Source of the DNA: Moraxella nasicaprae
GTDB taxonomy: Bacteria > Pseudomonadota > Gammaproteobacteria > Pseudomonadales > Moraxellaceae
Direction of reading: 5' to 3'
DNA: 32,000 nucleotides
NCBI RefSeq assembly: GCF_025643275.1
Contig: NZ_CP089977.1
Location: forward strand, 480,001-512,000
The position numbers were made by a program, and so were the translations under genes. The notes under the pieces are model-generated. The model made no database searches and was not told the origin of the DNA. It worked only from the letters and a program-made list of their open reading frames with translations. Below, piece after piece: positions 2,894-25,517 of the stretch. The stretch's first letter is position 1. Each line of letters starts with the position of its first letter.

Positions 2894-3283
2894 ATGAAAA
2901 CTTCTCTAAAAGCCCTATTGGCAACTGCCGCTTTGGTTTCTTCTGTATCAGCCATGGCAGATGATAAAGCTGGTGCAATCAATGCTCCACATGTTGTACA
3001 CCCAGAAGCCACCTACACCTGCGAAAGCGGTCAAACTGTGACCACTCAGCGTGCTCCACACCAAGACCTACGCATCACTGTTGATGGTCAAACTGAAATC
3101 TTGGAGCGTAACAAGCGTTCTTCATGGCATCTATGGAGCCATGTGCGTGGCAACAACTATCTGCGTGCTCATTACAGCAACGCTAATGGCTTTGCTTGGA
3201 GCGACAATGGCGAAACTGGTACTTTGCACTTCCCACAAGAAGGCAAAACCCTTAAAACTCGTTGCCAAATCGCTCAATCTTAA
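2894..3283 (+). CDS. Secreted small protein, possibly MliC-like
   Basis: Sec signal peptide MKTSLKALLATAALVSSVSAMA. Mature part is bracketed by two Cys (TYTCESG...KTRCQ). The FAWSDNGETGTL segment resembles the MliC W-x-x-KG-x-x-A-x-L region. Confidence 0.55.
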   Translation: MKTSLKALLATAALVSSVSAMADDKAGAINAPHVVHPEATYTCESGQTVTTQRAPHQDLRITVDGQTEILERNKRSSWHLWSHVRGNNYLRAHYSNANGFAWSDNGETGTLHFPQEGKTLKTRCQIAQS

Positions 3284-3294
3284 TCAAAAGATGA

Positions 3295-3326
3295 GAAAAA
3301 AGCTCGCCGTTGGTGGGCTTTTTTTG
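3295..3326 (+). terminator. Rho-independent terminator
   Basis: AAGCTCGCC / GGTGGGCTT stem (two G-U pairs) with a 3-nt loop, followed by a T7 run. Confidence 0.55.
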
Positions 3327-3331
3327 GCAAT

Positions 3332-3360
3332 AAAAAACACCCAACCACTGGGTATTTTTT
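3332..3360. terminator. Bidirectional terminator shared with dedA
   Basis: A6 run, ACCCA / TGGGT stem, then a T6 run. Lies between convergent genes. Confidence 0.45.
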
Positions 3361-3375
3361 ATATCAATCATCGAC

Positions 3376-19944: not shown

Positions 19945-20919
19945 TTAATGGCTTAATTTATCAATCAGCTCGCTCAGTTCATCGTGGCTATAAAAGAATA
20001 TTTCCACGCTACCCTTGCCGTCTTTGCCTTGTTTTAGTTTGACGGTTGCACCCAGTGCGTCTGAAATTTGTTGGCTTAATGCCAGCACTTCATGGTCAAT
20101 GATGGGAGCGATTTTTGGCTCTGGATTGATGATGGATTTGACAAGCTTTTCGGTGTCTCTGACCGTTAAGTGACCGTCAATGATTTTTTTGGCAATGATG
20201 GGTTGCTGTGCATTAGGCAAAGATAGCAAAGCACGAGCATGACCCATGTCCAATAACCCTTGCAGCATGTAATCCTTGACCGTATCGTGCAGCTGGTTTA
20301 GTCGCAACAGGTTGGTAACCGTTGCACGAGCCTTACCCACAACCGAAGCAATGGTGGCATGACTCATGCCAAATTCGGTATGAAAACGCTGCAATGCGGC
20401 CGCCTGCTCCAAAACATTCAAATCCTCTCGCTGAATGTTCTCAATCAATGCCAACGCAATGGCAATCTCATCATCAAGCACTCGCTCGATGGCAGGAATG
20501 CTATCAAGCCCAGCCAATTTGGCAGCTCGCCAACGCCGCTCGCCTGCGATGATTTCATGCGTGACGGTCTGACTGGTCTTATCTTCATCAGACAACAAGG
20601 GGCGAATGACGATTGGCTGCATCACGCCATGCTGACGGATTGAGGCAGCAAGTTCGGCAAGTGCCTCTTCTTTCATTTCTTTTCTGGGTTGGTATTTACC
20701 AGATTGCAAACGATTGGTGGCGATTTGCACCAAAGCCACTTTTTCTCCATCTTGGGTCAGCACCATGTCCGCTTGATTATCAACGATGGTCTTTTTATTG
20801 TTTGGTGTGTCGGTTTTTTTTGGGGTTAATTGCCCTTGTGCGATTTGCTTTTCTAGATTGACCTTAGAAAGCAATGCGTCCAAACCCTTATTTACTCCCA
20901 ATCCTCGTTTTTTTACCAT
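19945..20919 (-). CDS. parB: Chromosome partitioning protein ParB
   Basis: N-terminal KKRGLGVNKGLDALL peptide, GERRWRAAKLAG ParB box, HTH SHATIASVVGKARATVTN. Start taken at ATG 20919, preceded by AGGAAGG. Confidence 0.9.
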   Translation of the reverse strand: MVKKRGLGVNKGLDALLSKVNLEKQIAQGQLTPKKTDTPNNKKTIVDNQADMVLTQDGEKVALVQIATNRLQSGKYQPRKEMKEEALAELAASIRQHGVMQPIVIRPLLSDEDKTSQTVTHEIIAGERRWRAAKLAGLDSIPAIERVLDDEIAIALALIENIQREDLNVLEQAAALQRFHTEFGMSHATIASVVGKARATVTNLLRLNQLHDTVKDYMLQGLLDMGHARALLSLPNAQQPIIAKKIIDGHLTVRDTEKLVKSIINPEPKIAPIIDHEVLALSQQISDALGATVKLKQGKDGKGSVEIFFYSHDELSELIDKLSH

Positions 20920-20929
20920 AATCGCCTTC

Positions 20930-21358
20930 CTAACCATTGTCATTCATTGTCTGCAAATTGCTCTTGACCGCCATGTCGCCAAAACCATATTGCCAAAACA
21001 GCTCTATTTGTTGCCATTGTGCATTATCCAAATACACATTTGGCACAAACTGGGAGGAATTATCAGCCGACACATCATCTTGCTGCGTGGTGGTTGAGTG
21101 CGTCTTTGTATCAGGCTGCCCATCAGGCTCATCGGACTGGCAAAGTATCTGACTGACATCAGCACTGTCATCACTTGACACACAGTCTGGCTCAGCCAAA
21201 TCCTGCTCCTCATTGATTGACACCACCTCATCGCTCATCGACGCCAGCTCAGACTGCTCTGCCATCTGTACCGTCTGTGCCACTTGCCGACCGACTCTGA
21301 TGTTGGCAAGCAATGCGTCCAGTCCACGATTACCGCCCAGTCCTCGTTTTTTTGTCAT
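20930..21358 (-). CDS. Hypothetical protein: ParB N-terminal peptide duplicate fused to an acidic tail (orfX)
   Basis: MTKKRGLGGNRGLDALLANIRVGRQVAQ compares with ParB MVKKRGLGVNKGLDALLSKVNLEKQIAQ. The rest is D/E/S-rich, without a ParB box or HTH. The ORF fills the parA-parB gap. Confidence 0.5.
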   Translation of the reverse strand: MTKKRGLGGNRGLDALLANIRVGRQVAQTVQMAEQSELASMSDEVVSINEEQDLAEPDCVSSDDSADVSQILCQSDEPDGQPDTKTHSTTTQQDDVSADNSSQFVPNVYLDNAQWQQIELFWQYGFGDMAVKSNLQTMNDNG

Positions 21359-21369
21359 CTTATGCTACT

Positions 21370-22152
21370 CTATTTTGTTTGATGGGCAGATTGGGCAAGC
21401 ACTTCGTTCATCAGCTGCTGATAAGCGATTGCCCCTTTGGACGATTTTTCATAAGTAAAAATCGACTGCCCAAAACTTGGTGCTTCCGCCAGACGCACAT
21501 TGCGTGGAATGTAGGTTTTATAGACCAAATCGCCAAAGTGATTTTCAAGTTCATACGAGACATCATTGGCAAGCGTATTTCTATTATCAAACAAAGTACG
21601 CACCACCCCTCGAATGTGTAGTTTTGAGTTGATACTGCTTAGCTTGTCAATGGTGGCAATCAAATCCGCCACACCTTCAAGAGCGTAATATTCACACTGC
21701 ATCGGAATGATGACGCCATCAGTTGCTGCAAAGGCATTGACCGTAATCAAACTTAGGCTTGGGGCACAATCCATCACGATATAGTCATAATCAAGCCTGC
21801 CCTCAGCCTGTGCCTGCATCATCGCCTCTTTGAGCAAAAATGGGGCATTTTCTACGCCCGCCAAAGACACATCAATCCCTGCCAAATCACGGTTTGCCCC
21901 GATGACATCAATGCCCACAGGCGAAGTCAAAATCGCCTCAGCAAATGGCACGCCATCAAGCAATACATCAGCCATCGTGTATTGTAGGTTGTTTTTGTCC
22001 ACGCCCACGCTGGTAGTCGCATTGCCTTGTGAATCTAGGTCGATGAGCAATACTTTTTTGTGAGCAATCAAATGTAATGCCGCCGCCAAATTCACGGTCG
22101 TTGTGGTCTTGCCGACCCCACCTTTTTGGTTAGCGATTGCAATGATTTCCAT
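21370..22152 (-). CDS. parA: Chromosome partitioning ATPase ParA/Soj
   Basis: Deviant Walker A NQKGGVGKTTT. 260 aa. Positioned between rsmG and parB. Confidence 0.92.
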   Translation of the reverse strand: MEIIAIANQKGGVGKTTTTVNLAAALHLIAHKKVLLIDLDSQGNATTSVGVDKNNLQYTMADVLLDGVPFAEAILTSPVGIDVIGANRDLAGIDVSLAGVENAPFLLKEAMMQAQAEGRLDYDYIVMDCAPSLSLITVNAFAATDGVIIPMQCEYYALEGVADLIATIDKLSSINSKLHIRGVVRTLFDNRNTLANDVSYELENHFGDLVYKTYIPRNVRLAEAPSFGQSIFTYEKSSKGAIAYQQLMNEVLAQSAHQTK

Positions 22153-22186: not shown

Positions 22187-22864
22187 TTATTTTTGTAAAT
22201 AGACCACACAGCGACTGTCGTCAAGTTGCGGTACGCTGATGGGTTTGACGCTGATGTGCCAATCTGCCAAAGAAGCCAGCTCTTCGTCCGTTGGGTTTTT
22301 GCCCTTCATCGCATACAGCACGCCATCTTCCGCCAAACAAGGCGTGGCAAGTGCTACAAAATCCTGCAACGAAGCAAAAGCTCGTGAAGTAATGACTTGA
22401 TAAGTCTTGGCAAAATCAGCGTGATGATGCTCAATGCGACTGGCGATGGGCATGATATTTTTTAGGGCAAGCTCACTTGCCAGCTGTCGAATAAAGCGGA
22501 TTTTCTTTTGATTACTATCCAATGCCGACACCTGCCAATCAGGTCGCAAAATGGCAATAATCACCGATGGCAAGCCTGCCCCTGTGCCGATGTCCAACAA
22601 ACGCACCCGACCACGGTCAGCCAATGGCAAATCTGGCACGATTGCCATACAGTCAAAAATGTGCTTAATCAAGGCCTCTTTTGGGTCGGTAATGGCGGTC
22701 AAATTATACGCCTTGCCCCAAAGCAGCAGCCCATCTAAATATCGTAAAATTGCCAGCACCTGCTCATCATCAATCGACAAGCCAAGCACCTGAGCTGCTT
22801 GCATGATTTGGGTGGCAAATTCATCTGCCTGCTGAGAAATCTTAGAAAATCGGACGGTTGTCAT
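22187..22864 (-). CDS. rsmG: 16S rRNA (guanine527-N7)-methyltransferase RsmG (GidB)
   Basis: WGKAYNLTAI and LLDIGTGAGLP SAM motif. Conserved position upstream of parA. Confidence 0.9.
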   Translation of the reverse strand: MTTVRFSKISQQADEFATQIMQAAQVLGLSIDDEQVLAILRYLDGLLLWGKAYNLTAITDPKEALIKHIFDCMAIVPDLPLADRGRVRLLDIGTGAGLPSVIIAILRPDWQVSALDSNQKKIRFIRQLASELALKNIMPIASRIEHHHADFAKTYQVITSRAFASLQDFVALATPCLAEDGVLYAMKGKNPTDEELASLADWHISVKPISVPQLDDSRCVVYLQK

Positions 22865-23074: not shown

Positions 23075-23192
23075 CTGACAAATGTTCATTTCTCATTACT
23101 TTGTCATTCATTACCAAAAATTTTACCCTTTTTGCTTGATTTTGGGTTAAAATTGGGGCAATTTTCTCTTTATCATTCATCATCTATTGCCA

Positions 23193-25517
23193 ATGCAAAA
23201 ACTTAGTCCAGCCGACCTAAAACGCACCACCAATCCAAATCATCTGCCCAAAAATAGCCGTGCCAAACTCCCCAAGCCAGAGCTTAGTTTTGGTCAGCAG
23301 CGTGCCATCAAAGCCATCAACACCGCCCTAAACATTCGTGCCAATGGCTATCATATTTTTGCGGTCGGAGAAAATGGCTTGGGCAAACGCACCCTCATCA
23401 CTCGCCTACTGACCGAACGAGCCAAATCACAAAATACACCAAACGACCTTGTCTATGTGCATAATTTTGTGGACTCTCGCCGTCCCATCGCCATCGATTT
23501 ACCCACAGGTGCGGCATTTGCTTTCCAACAAAAAATCTACAAACTGTGGCAAACCGCCAAGCTTAAACTGACCGCCAAACTGCTTGGAGAGGTACATCAA
23601 AAACACATCAGCACCATCAAAGCATCGGTCAACGACACCCAAAATCAGTATTTTGATGACATCAACAAAAAAGGCAAGGCACACAACCTGTGCATTCAGC
23701 TACATCTGGACGGTCAGCCAAAATTGGTCGCCATTGATGATAAGCAAGAGATTGACCAAAAAATCTACCAAAAACTTAGCCAAGAGCTGACCCAAATTGA
23801 GCTAAAACTTGAAGACCTAGAAGACAGTCTGCATCAGCAGCTGGACGAGCTGCATCAAACTTCTGCCCTAAAAGTGCTTGAACCGCTATTTCGTCCGCTA
23901 CTTAGCACCTATCAAGCCAGCCCCAAAGCCATCGCTCATCTACAAGCCATGCAGGCAGACATGGTCAAAAATGTGGCACACATCATCAATGAAGATGATA
24001 ATGATTTTGTGGCGGCGGTGCTAAGCGAAGTGCCCAGTCGCTATGCGGTCAATATTCTGGTCAGTCATAAGGCAGGCAGTGGTGCTCCGATTATTTTTGA
24101 GGATTTGCCTACCCATCTAAACTTGCTTGGGCATATCGAGTACACCACCGAGCTTGGTACGGTTTTGACCGATGTGAGCATGATACGAGCGGGGGCGTTA
24201 CACCGAGCCAATGGTGGCTATCTTATCCTAGAAGCCAGTAGTCTATTAGAACACCCTTATGCATGGCAAGGGCTAAAACGAGCCTTGCAGTCTAAGCAAA
24301 TCAAAATATCCAGCCTAGAACAAATGCTGACCTTAACAGGTTCTTTATCGCTAGAACCTGACAGCATTGGGCTTGATGTCAAAGTTATTTTGCTTGGCGA
24401 AGCGGATTTGTATTATGAACTGCTCGAATTTGAACCAGAATTTAATGCCGTCTTTAAAATCCGTGCCGATTTTCATCATGACATCAGACGAGATGAACAA
24501 AGTGAGTTAGGCTTAGTCATCAAAATGGTGGACATGATTAAGGCATACCAACTGCCAACCTTTGACAACACCGCTTTTGCCGCCATCATCGATAAACTAA
24601 GCGAAATCGCTGATGATAAGCATAAGATTGACCTGCACGCCGACCGTCTGGCAAGTCTGCTGGTTGAATCTGCACAGCACGCCACGCAAGCAGGCAAAAG
24701 CACGGTTACCGCCACCGAAGTCGCCGCTGCCTTAGCTGACATTCACGAACGCACCAGCTATCTACAAGAGCTGTATTGGCAAGAGATTCACGGTGGGCAG
24801 CAAGTCATCAGCACCACAGGAAAAGCCGTTGGGCAAATCAATGCCTTGACCGTGATTAGCTATGCTGACAGCGAATTTGGTATGCCAGCTCGTCTAACCG
24901 CCCTAATCGCACCACGCTTTGGCCATGGCGAAATCCTAGACATCGAACGAGATGTTGAGCTTGGCGGTAGTCTGCACGCCAAAGGTATGCTGATTATGAC
25001 CAATTTTCTAAGGTCTTTGTTTAGTGAATTTTATGAGTTGAATTTTAGTGCCTCACTTGCCTTTGAACAAAGCTACGCCCATATTGATGGCGATAGTGCG
25101 ACTTTGGCAGAATGCTGTGCCTTATTTTCAGCACTCAGCGGTGTGCCCATCGCCCAAAATCTTGCCATTACAGGTTCAATGAATCAGCTTGGCGAAGCCC
25201 AAGCGGTCGGCGGAGTCAATGCCAAAATCGCAGGATTTTTTGATGCTTGTGTCGCCAAAGGATTGACAGGCAATCAGGGCGTGATTTTGCCACGCACCAA
25301 CCTAGACCAACTCATGCTTCGAGATGATATCATCAAGGCTGTGGCACGAGGTGAGTTTACCATTCATGTCATTGATAATATTTATCAAGCCCTAGAGCTT
25401 TTGACCGACATGCCTGTCAATGACAAAAATAAAAAAGGCGACTACAAAAAAGGCACGCTGTTCTACAAAGTGGTCAAACGCCTAGCCTCATGGAAGGACA
25501 AAGATGATAAGGAATAG
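23193..25517 (+). CDS. Lon-family protease homolog (AsrA/YcbZ-like; AAA-like domain plus Lon S16 proteolytic domain)
   Basis: P-loop-like GENGLGKRT (23367-23393). Coiled-coil-like insert LSQELTQIELKLEDLEDSLHQQLDELHQ. C-terminal IDGDSATLAE (Ser) and GGVNAKIAGF (Lys) match the Lon catalytic dyad context. Confidence 0.85.
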   Translation: MQKLSPADLKRTTNPNHLPKNSRAKLPKPELSFGQQRAIKAINTALNIRANGYHIFAVGENGLGKRTLITRLLTERAKSQNTPNDLVYVHNFVDSRRPIAIDLPTGAAFAFQQKIYKLWQTAKLKLTAKLLGEVHQKHISTIKASVNDTQNQYFDDINKKGKAHNLCIQLHLDGQPKLVAIDDKQEIDQKIYQKLSQELTQIELKLEDLEDSLHQQLDELHQTSALKVLEPLFRPLLSTYQASPKAIAHLQAMQADMVKNVAHIINEDDNDFVAAVLSEVPSRYAVNILVSHKAGSGAPIIFEDLPTHLNLLGHIEYTTELGTVLTDVSMIRAGALHRANGGYLILEASSLLEHPYAWQGLKRALQSKQIKISSLEQMLTLTGSLSLEPDSIGLDVKVILLGEADLYYELLEFEPEFNAVFKIRADFHHDIRRDEQSELGLVIKMVDMIKAYQLPTFDNTAFAAIIDKLSEIADDKHKIDLHADRLASLLVESAQHATQAGKSTVTATEVAAALADIHERTSYLQELYWQEIHGGQQVISTTGKAVGQINALTVISYADSEFGMPARLTALIAPRFGHGEILDIERDVELGGSLHAKGMLIMTNFLRSLFSEFYELNFSASLAFEQSYAHIDGDSATLAECCALFSALSGVPIAQNLAITGSMNQLGEAQAVGGVNAKIAGFFDACVAKGLTGNQGVILPRTNLDQLMLRDDIIKAVARGEFTIHVIDNIYQALELLTDMPVNDKNKKGDYKKGTLFYKVVKRLASWKDKDDKE

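Follow-up and report, generated by a model that had tools for sequence, protein, structure and literature searches.

The DNA analyzed here is a stretch of 32,000 nucleotides (nt) of the chromosome of Moraxella nasicaprae (contig NZ_CP089977.1, positions 480,001 to 512,000), referred to below as the window, and all coordinates are counted from its first letter. It harbours a chromosomal par operon in which a third gene, an open reading frame (ORF) of 142 amino acids (aa; 20930..21358, minus strand), is located between parA and parB. The product of this ORF, here named X, is 100% identical to WP_263076793, a 'hypothetical protein' of M. nasicaprae. The gene cluster, encoded on the minus strand, has the order rsmG-parA-X-parB. 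It starts with rsmG (gidB; 22187..22864; Pfam GidB 3.7e-45), followed by parA (21370..22152; Pfam AAA_31 7e-55, CbiA 3e-25), encoding the presumed target of X, a protein of 260 aa. The parB gene (19945..20919) encodes a full-length ParB of 324 aa (Pfam ParB_N 4e-33, HTH_ParB 7e-31, ParB_C 2e-12), and its start at 20919 (MVKKRGLG) is backed by all ParB orthologues. The stop codon of parA occupies 21372-21370 and X starts 11 nt beyond it, at 21358. The TAG stop codon of X (20932-20930) overlaps AGGAAGG, the Shine-Dalgarno sequence of parB (20925..20931, minus strand, read directly from the sequence), which lies 5 nt before the parB ATG. This layout had already been described in an earlier interpretation made from the letters alone, the sequence-only reading, and was confirmed. 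Terminator-like sites were not found at the parA-X or the X-parB junction; minus-strand sites of this type occur only inside rsmG, parA and parB.

The first 34 residues of X make up an N module (21257..21358, minus strand) with a net charge of +4, in which a ParB-derived motif is followed by an X-specific helix, KVGRQV..V. Residues 1-28 of X and ParB share 17 identical and 23 similar positions out of 28 (BLASTP E 2e-9), and in a comparison of the two families columns 1-27 alone align (hhalign, probability 97.2%, E 3.7e-11). The similarity is also visible at the DNA level, 40 of the first 51 nt being identical to the window's parB, and it ends around residue 30, as had been claimed. The core ParA-binding motif KRGLGGNRGLDALL (residues 4-17; 21308..21349, minus strand) was mapped onto ParB of Myxococcus xanthus. 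In this mapping R11 is the counterpart of the activating Arg, and L13, L16 and L17 constitute the hydrophobic face. ParB's own ParA-binding motif is found at 20869-20919, and the ParB N-terminus MVKKRGLGVNKGLDALL is kept in all X-bearing genomes. The N modules of the X family follow the pattern M-x-KKRGLG-xx-RGLDALL-xxx-KVGRQV-xx-V-xx-A, in which M1, G12, L13, L16, L17, V22, R24, Q25, V26 and A33 are invariant and K4, R5, L7 and G8 nearly invariant. Residues 20-34 (GRQV..V) are conserved and specific for X; ParB reads ..EK.I.. there. All members whose N-terminus is intact have an N-module charge of +3 to +5; for P0070, which begins at the RGLD motif, it is 0. In both ParB and X of Moraxellaceae the motif KRGLG-xN-RGLDALL contains two 'RGL' units, with a 2-residue insertion compared to the usual LG-R-GL..LL spacing (window 20869-20919 and 21308-21358; L006-L085). 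Apart from this peptide nothing of ParB was recovered. X gave no Pfam or NCBIfam domain match even at E <= 1, with ParB/Srx (PF02195), the GERRxRA box, the helix-turn-helix (HTH) domain (PF17762) and PF23552 all missing, and a DNA-binding domain was not detected in it. The lack of a ParB box and HTH, as stated in the sequence-only reading, thus holds.

Structure prediction with AlphaFold2 (AF2) was performed with the family alignment on monomers of the 142-aa and the 93-aa forms of X. In both forms helices were predicted only at the two end modules, with disorder between them. Confidence was low for the N module, which showed only short helices. The region in between, residues 35-109 (21032..21256, minus strand), is an acidic linker predicted from AF2 and from its composition to be intrinsically disordered. 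Its predicted local distance difference test score (pLDDT) is ~40-54, and <50 for residues 42-76 and 78-95, and no secondary structure was predicted in it except for residues 35-39, the end of helix 22-39. The linker of the window's X has a net charge of -18, with 25% D/E and 1% K/R, in agreement with the acidic middle noted before. Linkers in the family vary from 41 to 147 aa and are always net negative (-5 to -41), without sequence conservation; evidently, their length changes through repeat expansion. They are rich in S, T, Q, N, P, G and A, and K and R are almost absent. The linker of Moraxella sp. ZJ142 (L010 ~3120-3340) contains a long in-frame (DEI)n tandem repeat of ~24 copies, and that of M. 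pluranimalium (L006 ~3130-3370) a masked N run between EPV repeats.

At the other end of the protein a C module was found, residues 110-126, LDNAQWQQIELFWQYGF (20981..21031, minus strand), an aromatic helix with an invariant Trp identified by alignment and AF2. Its pattern is L-x3-[YWH]-Q-x-x-[QE]-I-x-L-F-W-Q-x-G-L, followed by 2-22 variable residues. L110, F121, W122 and G125 are invariant in the family, and I118, L120 and position 126 nearly invariant. AF2 predicted a helix at 112-124 with a pLDDT of ~87 (~84-87 for the C helix over the two forms modelled). The alignment shows that the remaining tail, residues 127-142 plus the TAG (20930..20980, minus strand), is limited to the nasicaprae group; AF2 predicted a helix in it at 127-135 with moderate confidence, and the other orthologues stop 2-10 residues past the C module. 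The aromatic patch WQQIELFWQYGF pointed out earlier is present. The sequence-only reading had described X as only the ParB peptide plus an acidic tail: both parts are indeed there, but the C module, with its invariant L110, F121, W122 and G125, and the helix at residues 20-34 had been missed.

Several possible origins and functions of the C module were considered. Derivation from the C-terminal tail of ParA was rejected because the 'YQQ' shared in the window is missing in ParA of other species (AYHKLMNEV), and derivation from a ParB segment because hhalign aligns columns 1-27 only. A sigma-70 region 4 or LuxR-type HTH was also rejected: NCBIfam matches (E 0.003-0.05) reached 13 bits, compared to cut-offs of 43-208, in 3 of 16 members, and Pfam and PDB gave nothing. 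Most X members end a few residues after the C helix. The sub-threshold sigma-70/extracytoplasmic function (ECF) matches are located at residues ~150-199 of the M. porci-type X proteins P0011, P0008 and P0015, which have a pattern, L..L..xQREI.LFWQYGLS, similar to that of the first helix in sigma region 4, an unconfirmed weak lead. The beta-clamp motif QL[SD]LF, compared by eye with its consensus, was not matched and is at most an unconfirmed lead: Gln and Glu each take position 1 in 6 of the 12 lineages, and F, W and G, which are invariant, reach beyond the motif. A compact hairpin of N helix 2 and the C helix has no support in the AF2 monomer models (predicted template modelling score (pTM) 0.22 and 0.23). 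Finally, the C module is unlikely to be a membrane-targeting amphipathic helix. The hydrophobic moment of the C segment (0.36-0.39) is similar to that of MinD targeting sequences, but a cationic flank is lacking and the net charge is -6 to +1.

A word-indexed search retrieved close relatives of X at 90-93% identity, plus two longer proteins sharing only the first ~30 residues and the short C-terminal motif, and the contigs of these relatives again showed the order parA-X-parB. Scanning of one genome per species with a ParB query yielded 80 Moraxellaceae par loci, in each of which parA, parB and X-like sequence were located. X was found between parA and parB in 7 named species (M. nasicaprae, M. 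pluranimalium, M. canis, M. catarrhalis, M. porci, M. cuniculi and Moraxella sp. ZJ142) and, in the same slot, in 5 metagenomic lineages. Every sampled member of this clade (12 lineages) has X, and the six X-bearing genomes besides the window's are those with the ParB nearest to that of the window. The clade carrying X is small. An X-like ORF is missing in M. bovoculi, M. caviae, M. oculi, M. oblonga, several Moraxella metagenome-assembled genomes and all Psychrobacter examined, in which the spacer is ~100-280 nt. The parA-parB spacer of Psychrobacter lutiphocae (L085 3021-3501) is ~480 nt, with only hydrophobic ORFs of 32-45 aa, none of them X-like. In M. lacunata, M. nonliquefaciens, M. caprae and M. 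equi (L017, L018, L020, L022, L029) no parA is located within 3.5 kb upstream of parB; this group therefore either has its parA and parB apart or lacks parA.

Profile searches delimited the family further. With a threshold of E <= 0.01, 74 matches were obtained, all of them X-family proteins or fragments save one full-length ParB. The X-family proteins among them are unnamed or called 'hypothetical protein', and none has a Pfam domain. The same type of search against 1.84 billion representative proteins gave 13 matches, the X family and two broken ParBs; its divergent members P0075 and P0076 are again encoded between parA and parB. An origin of X from a plasmid or phage found no support: using tblastn, it was detected in none of 72,556 plasmids and 50,697 phages. 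X proteins are 93-202 aa long. That of M. catarrhalis, the 93-aa form, is intact on >2,000 contigs, and 3 frameshifted variants (P0069, P0071 and P0073) were found on one or two contigs each. In one of these a further Lys is found at the A-rich KKR codons; the frameshifts may be sequencing errors or rare natural disruptions. No description of X was found among the literature searched on Moraxella parA/parB and on ParB-motif paralogues.

Selection was analyzed by comparison with three close relatives and, between species, by comparing the proportions of nonsynonymous (pN) and synonymous (pS) differences per module. Nonsynonymous changes with respect to the close relatives numbered 0 in parA, 1-4 in parB and 10-15.5 in X. 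In X none of these is located in the N module and one in the C module (versus L087), the rest being in the linker. The ratio of nonsynonymous to synonymous rates (dN/dS) is 0.36-0.42 for the whole gene and ~0.3-0.5 for the linker. X is intact, syntenic throughout the clade and constrained, which answers the questions about relatives, gene order and selection that the sequence-only reading had raised. Between species, pN of the N module was 0.05-0.36 at a pS of 0.3-0.84, and pN of the C module 0.03-0.40 at a pS of 0.55-1.1; synonymous sites are saturated at this distance (pS mostly 0.5-1.0), and pN there amounts to 0.07-0.36 for the N and 0.10-0.40 for the C module. Both modules of X are under strong purifying selection. 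Conservation of the C-terminal motif behind a linker varying 3.5-fold in length requires translation in the X frame. The N-termini of X proteins resemble one another and carry X-specific residues, and the duplication that gave rise to X is therefore, judged by these sequences, old. Over the 51 nt, X and parB of the same genome share 27-44 positions, with a between-genome mean of 35; only two lineages, nasicaprae (40) and P0005 (44), are clearly above this mean. The case for ongoing gene conversion between X and parB would be weak at best. The odd codon choice ascribed to X earlier was borne out in part: its GAA/GAG ratio is 0/8, versus 9/3 in parA and 12/9 in parB, but its GC content at third codon positions is normal (0.52 versus 0.48-0.50). 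Foreign codon usage was therefore rejected, since only the use of GAG over GAA stands out.

The residues retained in X are equivalent to those by which ParB is known to bind ParA. In M. xanthus ParB, L15, L18 and I19 were shown experimentally to mediate ParA binding, while R13 is needed for stimulation of the ATPase and dispensable for binding (PMC12462528). The invariant L13, L16 and L17 of X match L15, L18 and I19, and R11 matches R13. The best PDB match of the window's ParA is the M. xanthus ParA 8RAY (E 1.6e-61). Of six mapped positions of its hydrophobic ParB-binding pocket, five are conserved or conservatively replaced in Moraxellaceae (V/I116, L150, L/M152, V/I155 and I/L192); the L187 column, beside an alignment gap, holds K/R in Moraxellaceae. 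From these correspondences we infer docking of X on dimers of ATP-bound ParA, at the site used by ParB. In M. xanthus ParA, Y81 and E117 belong to the pocket for ParB's activating Arg and are described as invariant (PMC12462528). All Moraxellaceae ParA examined (L001-L090 and the window) have Ala at the Y81 and Ser/Thr at the E117 position. Co-evolution of this pocket with X was considered and rejected, because the Y81-to-A and E117-to-S/T replacements occur in Moraxellaceae both with and without X.

It is proposed, with moderate confidence, that X is a two-ended partner or adaptor of ParA, a lineage-specific third protein of the rsmG-parA-X-parB operon. Its N motif (KRGLG-GN-RGLDALL) would have arisen, in the common ancestor of one Moraxella clade, as a copy of the 5' end of parB. 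Conservation of the motif suggests that it forms a short helix and that this helix docks at the ParA-ATP dimer interface, in the same hydrophobic pocket that serves ParB, so that X may compete with ParB or act beside it, without parS, DNA or CTP. Having R11, the window's X should stimulate the ParA ATPase. The acidic linker, conserved in composition, would serve as a flexible spacer whose negative charge may hold X off the nucleoid. The C-terminal Trp helix is predicted to make a second specific contact, either with a putative cargo or anchor or with X itself, thereby pairing two N-peptides, and this contact would hitch ParA to something besides the ParB-parS complex. A more specific form of this proposal is put forward tentatively, being somewhat less probable than the general one: the chromosomal ParA of the M. 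catarrhalis clade could be a dual-client motor, with the DNA-free X hooking ParA through its Trp helix to a non-chromosomal cargo or anchor and competing with ParB for one site.

Several observations weigh against such a two-ended partner. Productive engagement of ParA requires two juxtaposed peptides on the closed ParB clamp (PMC12462528, Schnabel et al. 2025), and a monomeric X might consequently bind weakly, in the 1-100 uM range. The low pTM of the AF2 models (0.22-0.23) reveals neither a compact fold nor a sign of self-association. The profile search with the C module returned X proteins only, leaving the cargo hypothetical, and the Shine-Dalgarno sequence preceding X is weak in the window. 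Finally, the central Arg is present in the window's X and most orthologues, and is a Tyr (KYGLD) in M. catarrhalis (L008 3150-3431) and M. canis (L007 2953-3432). Because of this replacement, binding rather than stimulation seems to be conserved: binding, and not necessarily activation of the ATPase, appears to be the family-wide property of X, and in M. catarrhalis and M. canis X may be a binder of ParA that does not activate it.

In the main rival explanation X is a soluble modulator or decoy that binds dimers of ParA at a distance from the partition complex and either triggers ATP hydrolysis and release of ParA from the nucleoid or blocks ParB, in this way tuning the ParA gradient, its C module serving self-association or stability. 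Sharing of the ParA-binding motif with ParB is what this explanation expects, and co-transcription between parA and parB would yield X in constant proportion to the two other proteins. Given the need for two juxtaposed peptides, a C helix that dimerises would be plausible, a Tyr in place of the activating Arg would suit a non-activating competitor, and the acidic linker could mimic DNA on the basic face of ParA. Against it, the AF2 monomer models show no packed or oligomeric fold, and strict conservation of an aromatic motif (L, F, W and G) is what one would sooner expect from a specific contact with a different protein. The idea of a ParA-docking peptide at the N-terminus, from which the sequence-only reading proposed a modulator or decoy, finds support in the invariance of the predicted docking residues G12, L13, L16 and L17, but a pure decoy appears less apt: it would need neither the X-specific helix 20-34 nor the Trp-containing C module, both of which are conserved. 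This makes the two-ended partner the better reading, and a purely soluble modulator is considered rather unlikely.

Still less probable, though conceivable, is that the N module has a target other than ParA, such as the N-terminal region or clamp of ParB or another ParA/MinD-type ATPase encoded elsewhere, with X regulating ParB loading or an unrelated positioning process. Residues 20-34 of X (KVGRQVxxV..A) differ from those of ParB (I..EK.I), indicating a specificity of its own, and activation chemistry may be atypical in Moraxellaceae ParA, which lack equivalents of Y81 and E117. ParA is nevertheless favoured as the target, since X is encoded within the parAB operon and its invariant residues include precisely those equivalent to the ParA contacts of ParB, the changes in the ParA pocket are common to genomes with and without X, and in the window no ATPase gene besides parA was found. 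The last explanation is that X is a relic without function, left by partial duplication of the 5' part of parB, as put forward earlier as an alternative, or that the ORF is a chance reading frame within a regulatory spacer. The nucleotide identity of its first 51 nt to parB, a database name of 'hypothetical protein' only and a fast-evolving linker with tandem repeats would fit a relic. It is effectively refuted by the data on the family. The frame is open in 12 lineages despite two-fold variation in length, always in the same slot, and the C module is conserved only when the X frame is translated. In both modules pN is far below the saturated pS, and the intact M. catarrhalis copies vastly outnumber the three frameshifted variants. 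Moreover, the short spacer of relatives outside the clade means that no large regulatory DNA is needed there.

In the prevailing view a ParA/MinD ATPase has one cognate activating partner, which for chromosomal ParA is ParB on parS. The locus described here is a natural and conserved example of a transplanted tag: the peptide by which ParB docks on ParA has been placed on an unrelated protein, disordered and acidic, that is encoded in the same operon. If X binds ParA, it would provide a ready-made system to study how a free peptide-bearing partner reshapes the ParA gradient, be it as competitor, anchor or second cargo. It would also mean that new ParA clients can arise by duplication of a tag, a natural counterpart to the 'luggage-tag' idea proposed by synthetic biologists (PMC10241942). 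In that case M. catarrhalis, a tractable human pathogen, would possess an unstudied component of chromosome segregation, of which the 93-aa form offers a compact minimal version. Should ParA indeed be a dual-client motor, the operon would represent the first natural example of a chromosomal ParABS system equipped with a second partner of its own, derived from duplication of the ParA-binding motif. The C-terminal Trp helix provides a direct handle for finding the second partner of X.

The surroundings of the operon complete the picture of the locus. On the 3' side of parB, msbA-like, lpxK, kdsB and holB genes follow on the minus strand. The order rsmG-parA-X-parB was also found in L005 and L086. 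No match to the parS sequence TGTTTCACGTGAAACA was found in the ORF or in the window, with <=3 mismatches allowed. Divergently from rsmG, a Lon-like protease of 776 aa is encoded (23187-25517, plus strand) with LonC_helical, AAA_32, LonB LID and Lon_C domains, and its arrangement next to rsmG is the same in L005 and L086.

Compared with known systems, X is closest in sequence to ParB/Spo0J itself. The N-terminal 27 residues are homologous, the hydrophobic face of the helix is the same, the central Arg is shared by most members and the gene is located beside parA. Since the tag of X is a verbatim relative of that of ParB, competition of X and ParB for a single ParA site is to be expected. Unlike X, ParB has a CTPase domain (ParB/Srx, GERRWRA), a parS-binding HTH and a C-terminal dimerisation domain, and X in turn has its own helix 20-34 and the C module. 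Lacking the ParB/Srx, HTH and dimerisation domains, X cannot form a clamp, bind parS or spread. The type Ib centromere-binding proteins ParG and omega consist of an unstructured N-terminal tail that stimulates ParA and a small DNA-binding fold. X resembles them as a small protein with a flexible N-terminal tail predicted to act on a ParA ATPase, but it lacks the DNA-binding fold and its strongly acidic character argues against DNA binding. The proteins PadC (with bactofilin), PopZ, TipN and HubP need no parS to bind chromosomal ParA, which they attach to a structure of the cell. This is one possible role for X, to which their sequences are unrelated. We know of none of these four proteins that uses a copy of the ParB N-terminal motif or is encoded between parA and parB.

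A precedent for two activators acting on one ParA/MinD ATPase is found in PomX and PomY of M. xanthus, which act on PomZ. Each of the two is predicted to have a site of its own on PomZ, whereas X, sharing the motif of ParB, should use the ParB site. They are not homologous to X, and the PomXYZ system positions the division site. More generally, partners of ParA/MinD ATPases engage the ATPase through a charged N-terminal peptide and devote the rest of their sequence to the cargo (PMC10241942), and a short, positively charged and disordered N-terminal peptide is their defining feature (PMC10241942, PMC13170346). X matches these features with its charged N-terminal peptide, and its gene is located directly downstream of parA in 12/12 lineages. 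Among such partners McdB combines an N-terminal ATPase tag of ~20 residues, a disordered body of variable length and a C-terminal motif with an invariant Trp that binds the cargo. The fully disordered alpha-type McdB of Halothiobacillus, the adaptor between McdA and the carboxysome, resembles X in its succession of N-terminal tag (presumed for X), disordered body and a C-terminal segment with an invariant Trp; alpha-McdB bodies range in length from 51 to 169 aa, and McdB is encoded beside its ATPase, as X is beside parA. Sequence homology between X and McdB was not found in the search of 1.84 billion proteins, and the C motif of X is a helix LFWQxGL with W122 located 5-22 residues from the end and without the WPD of McdB. 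Furthermore, the ATPase of X would be the chromosomal ParA, already partnered by ParB, in a rsmG-parA-X-parB-msbA-lpxK locus that is not a carboxysome or bacterial microcompartment (BMC) locus, and its hosts are host-associated heterotrophs. With these differences in mind, McdB would be the best architectural analogue of X: a tag for the ATPase at one end, a disordered body and an invariant Trp at the other.

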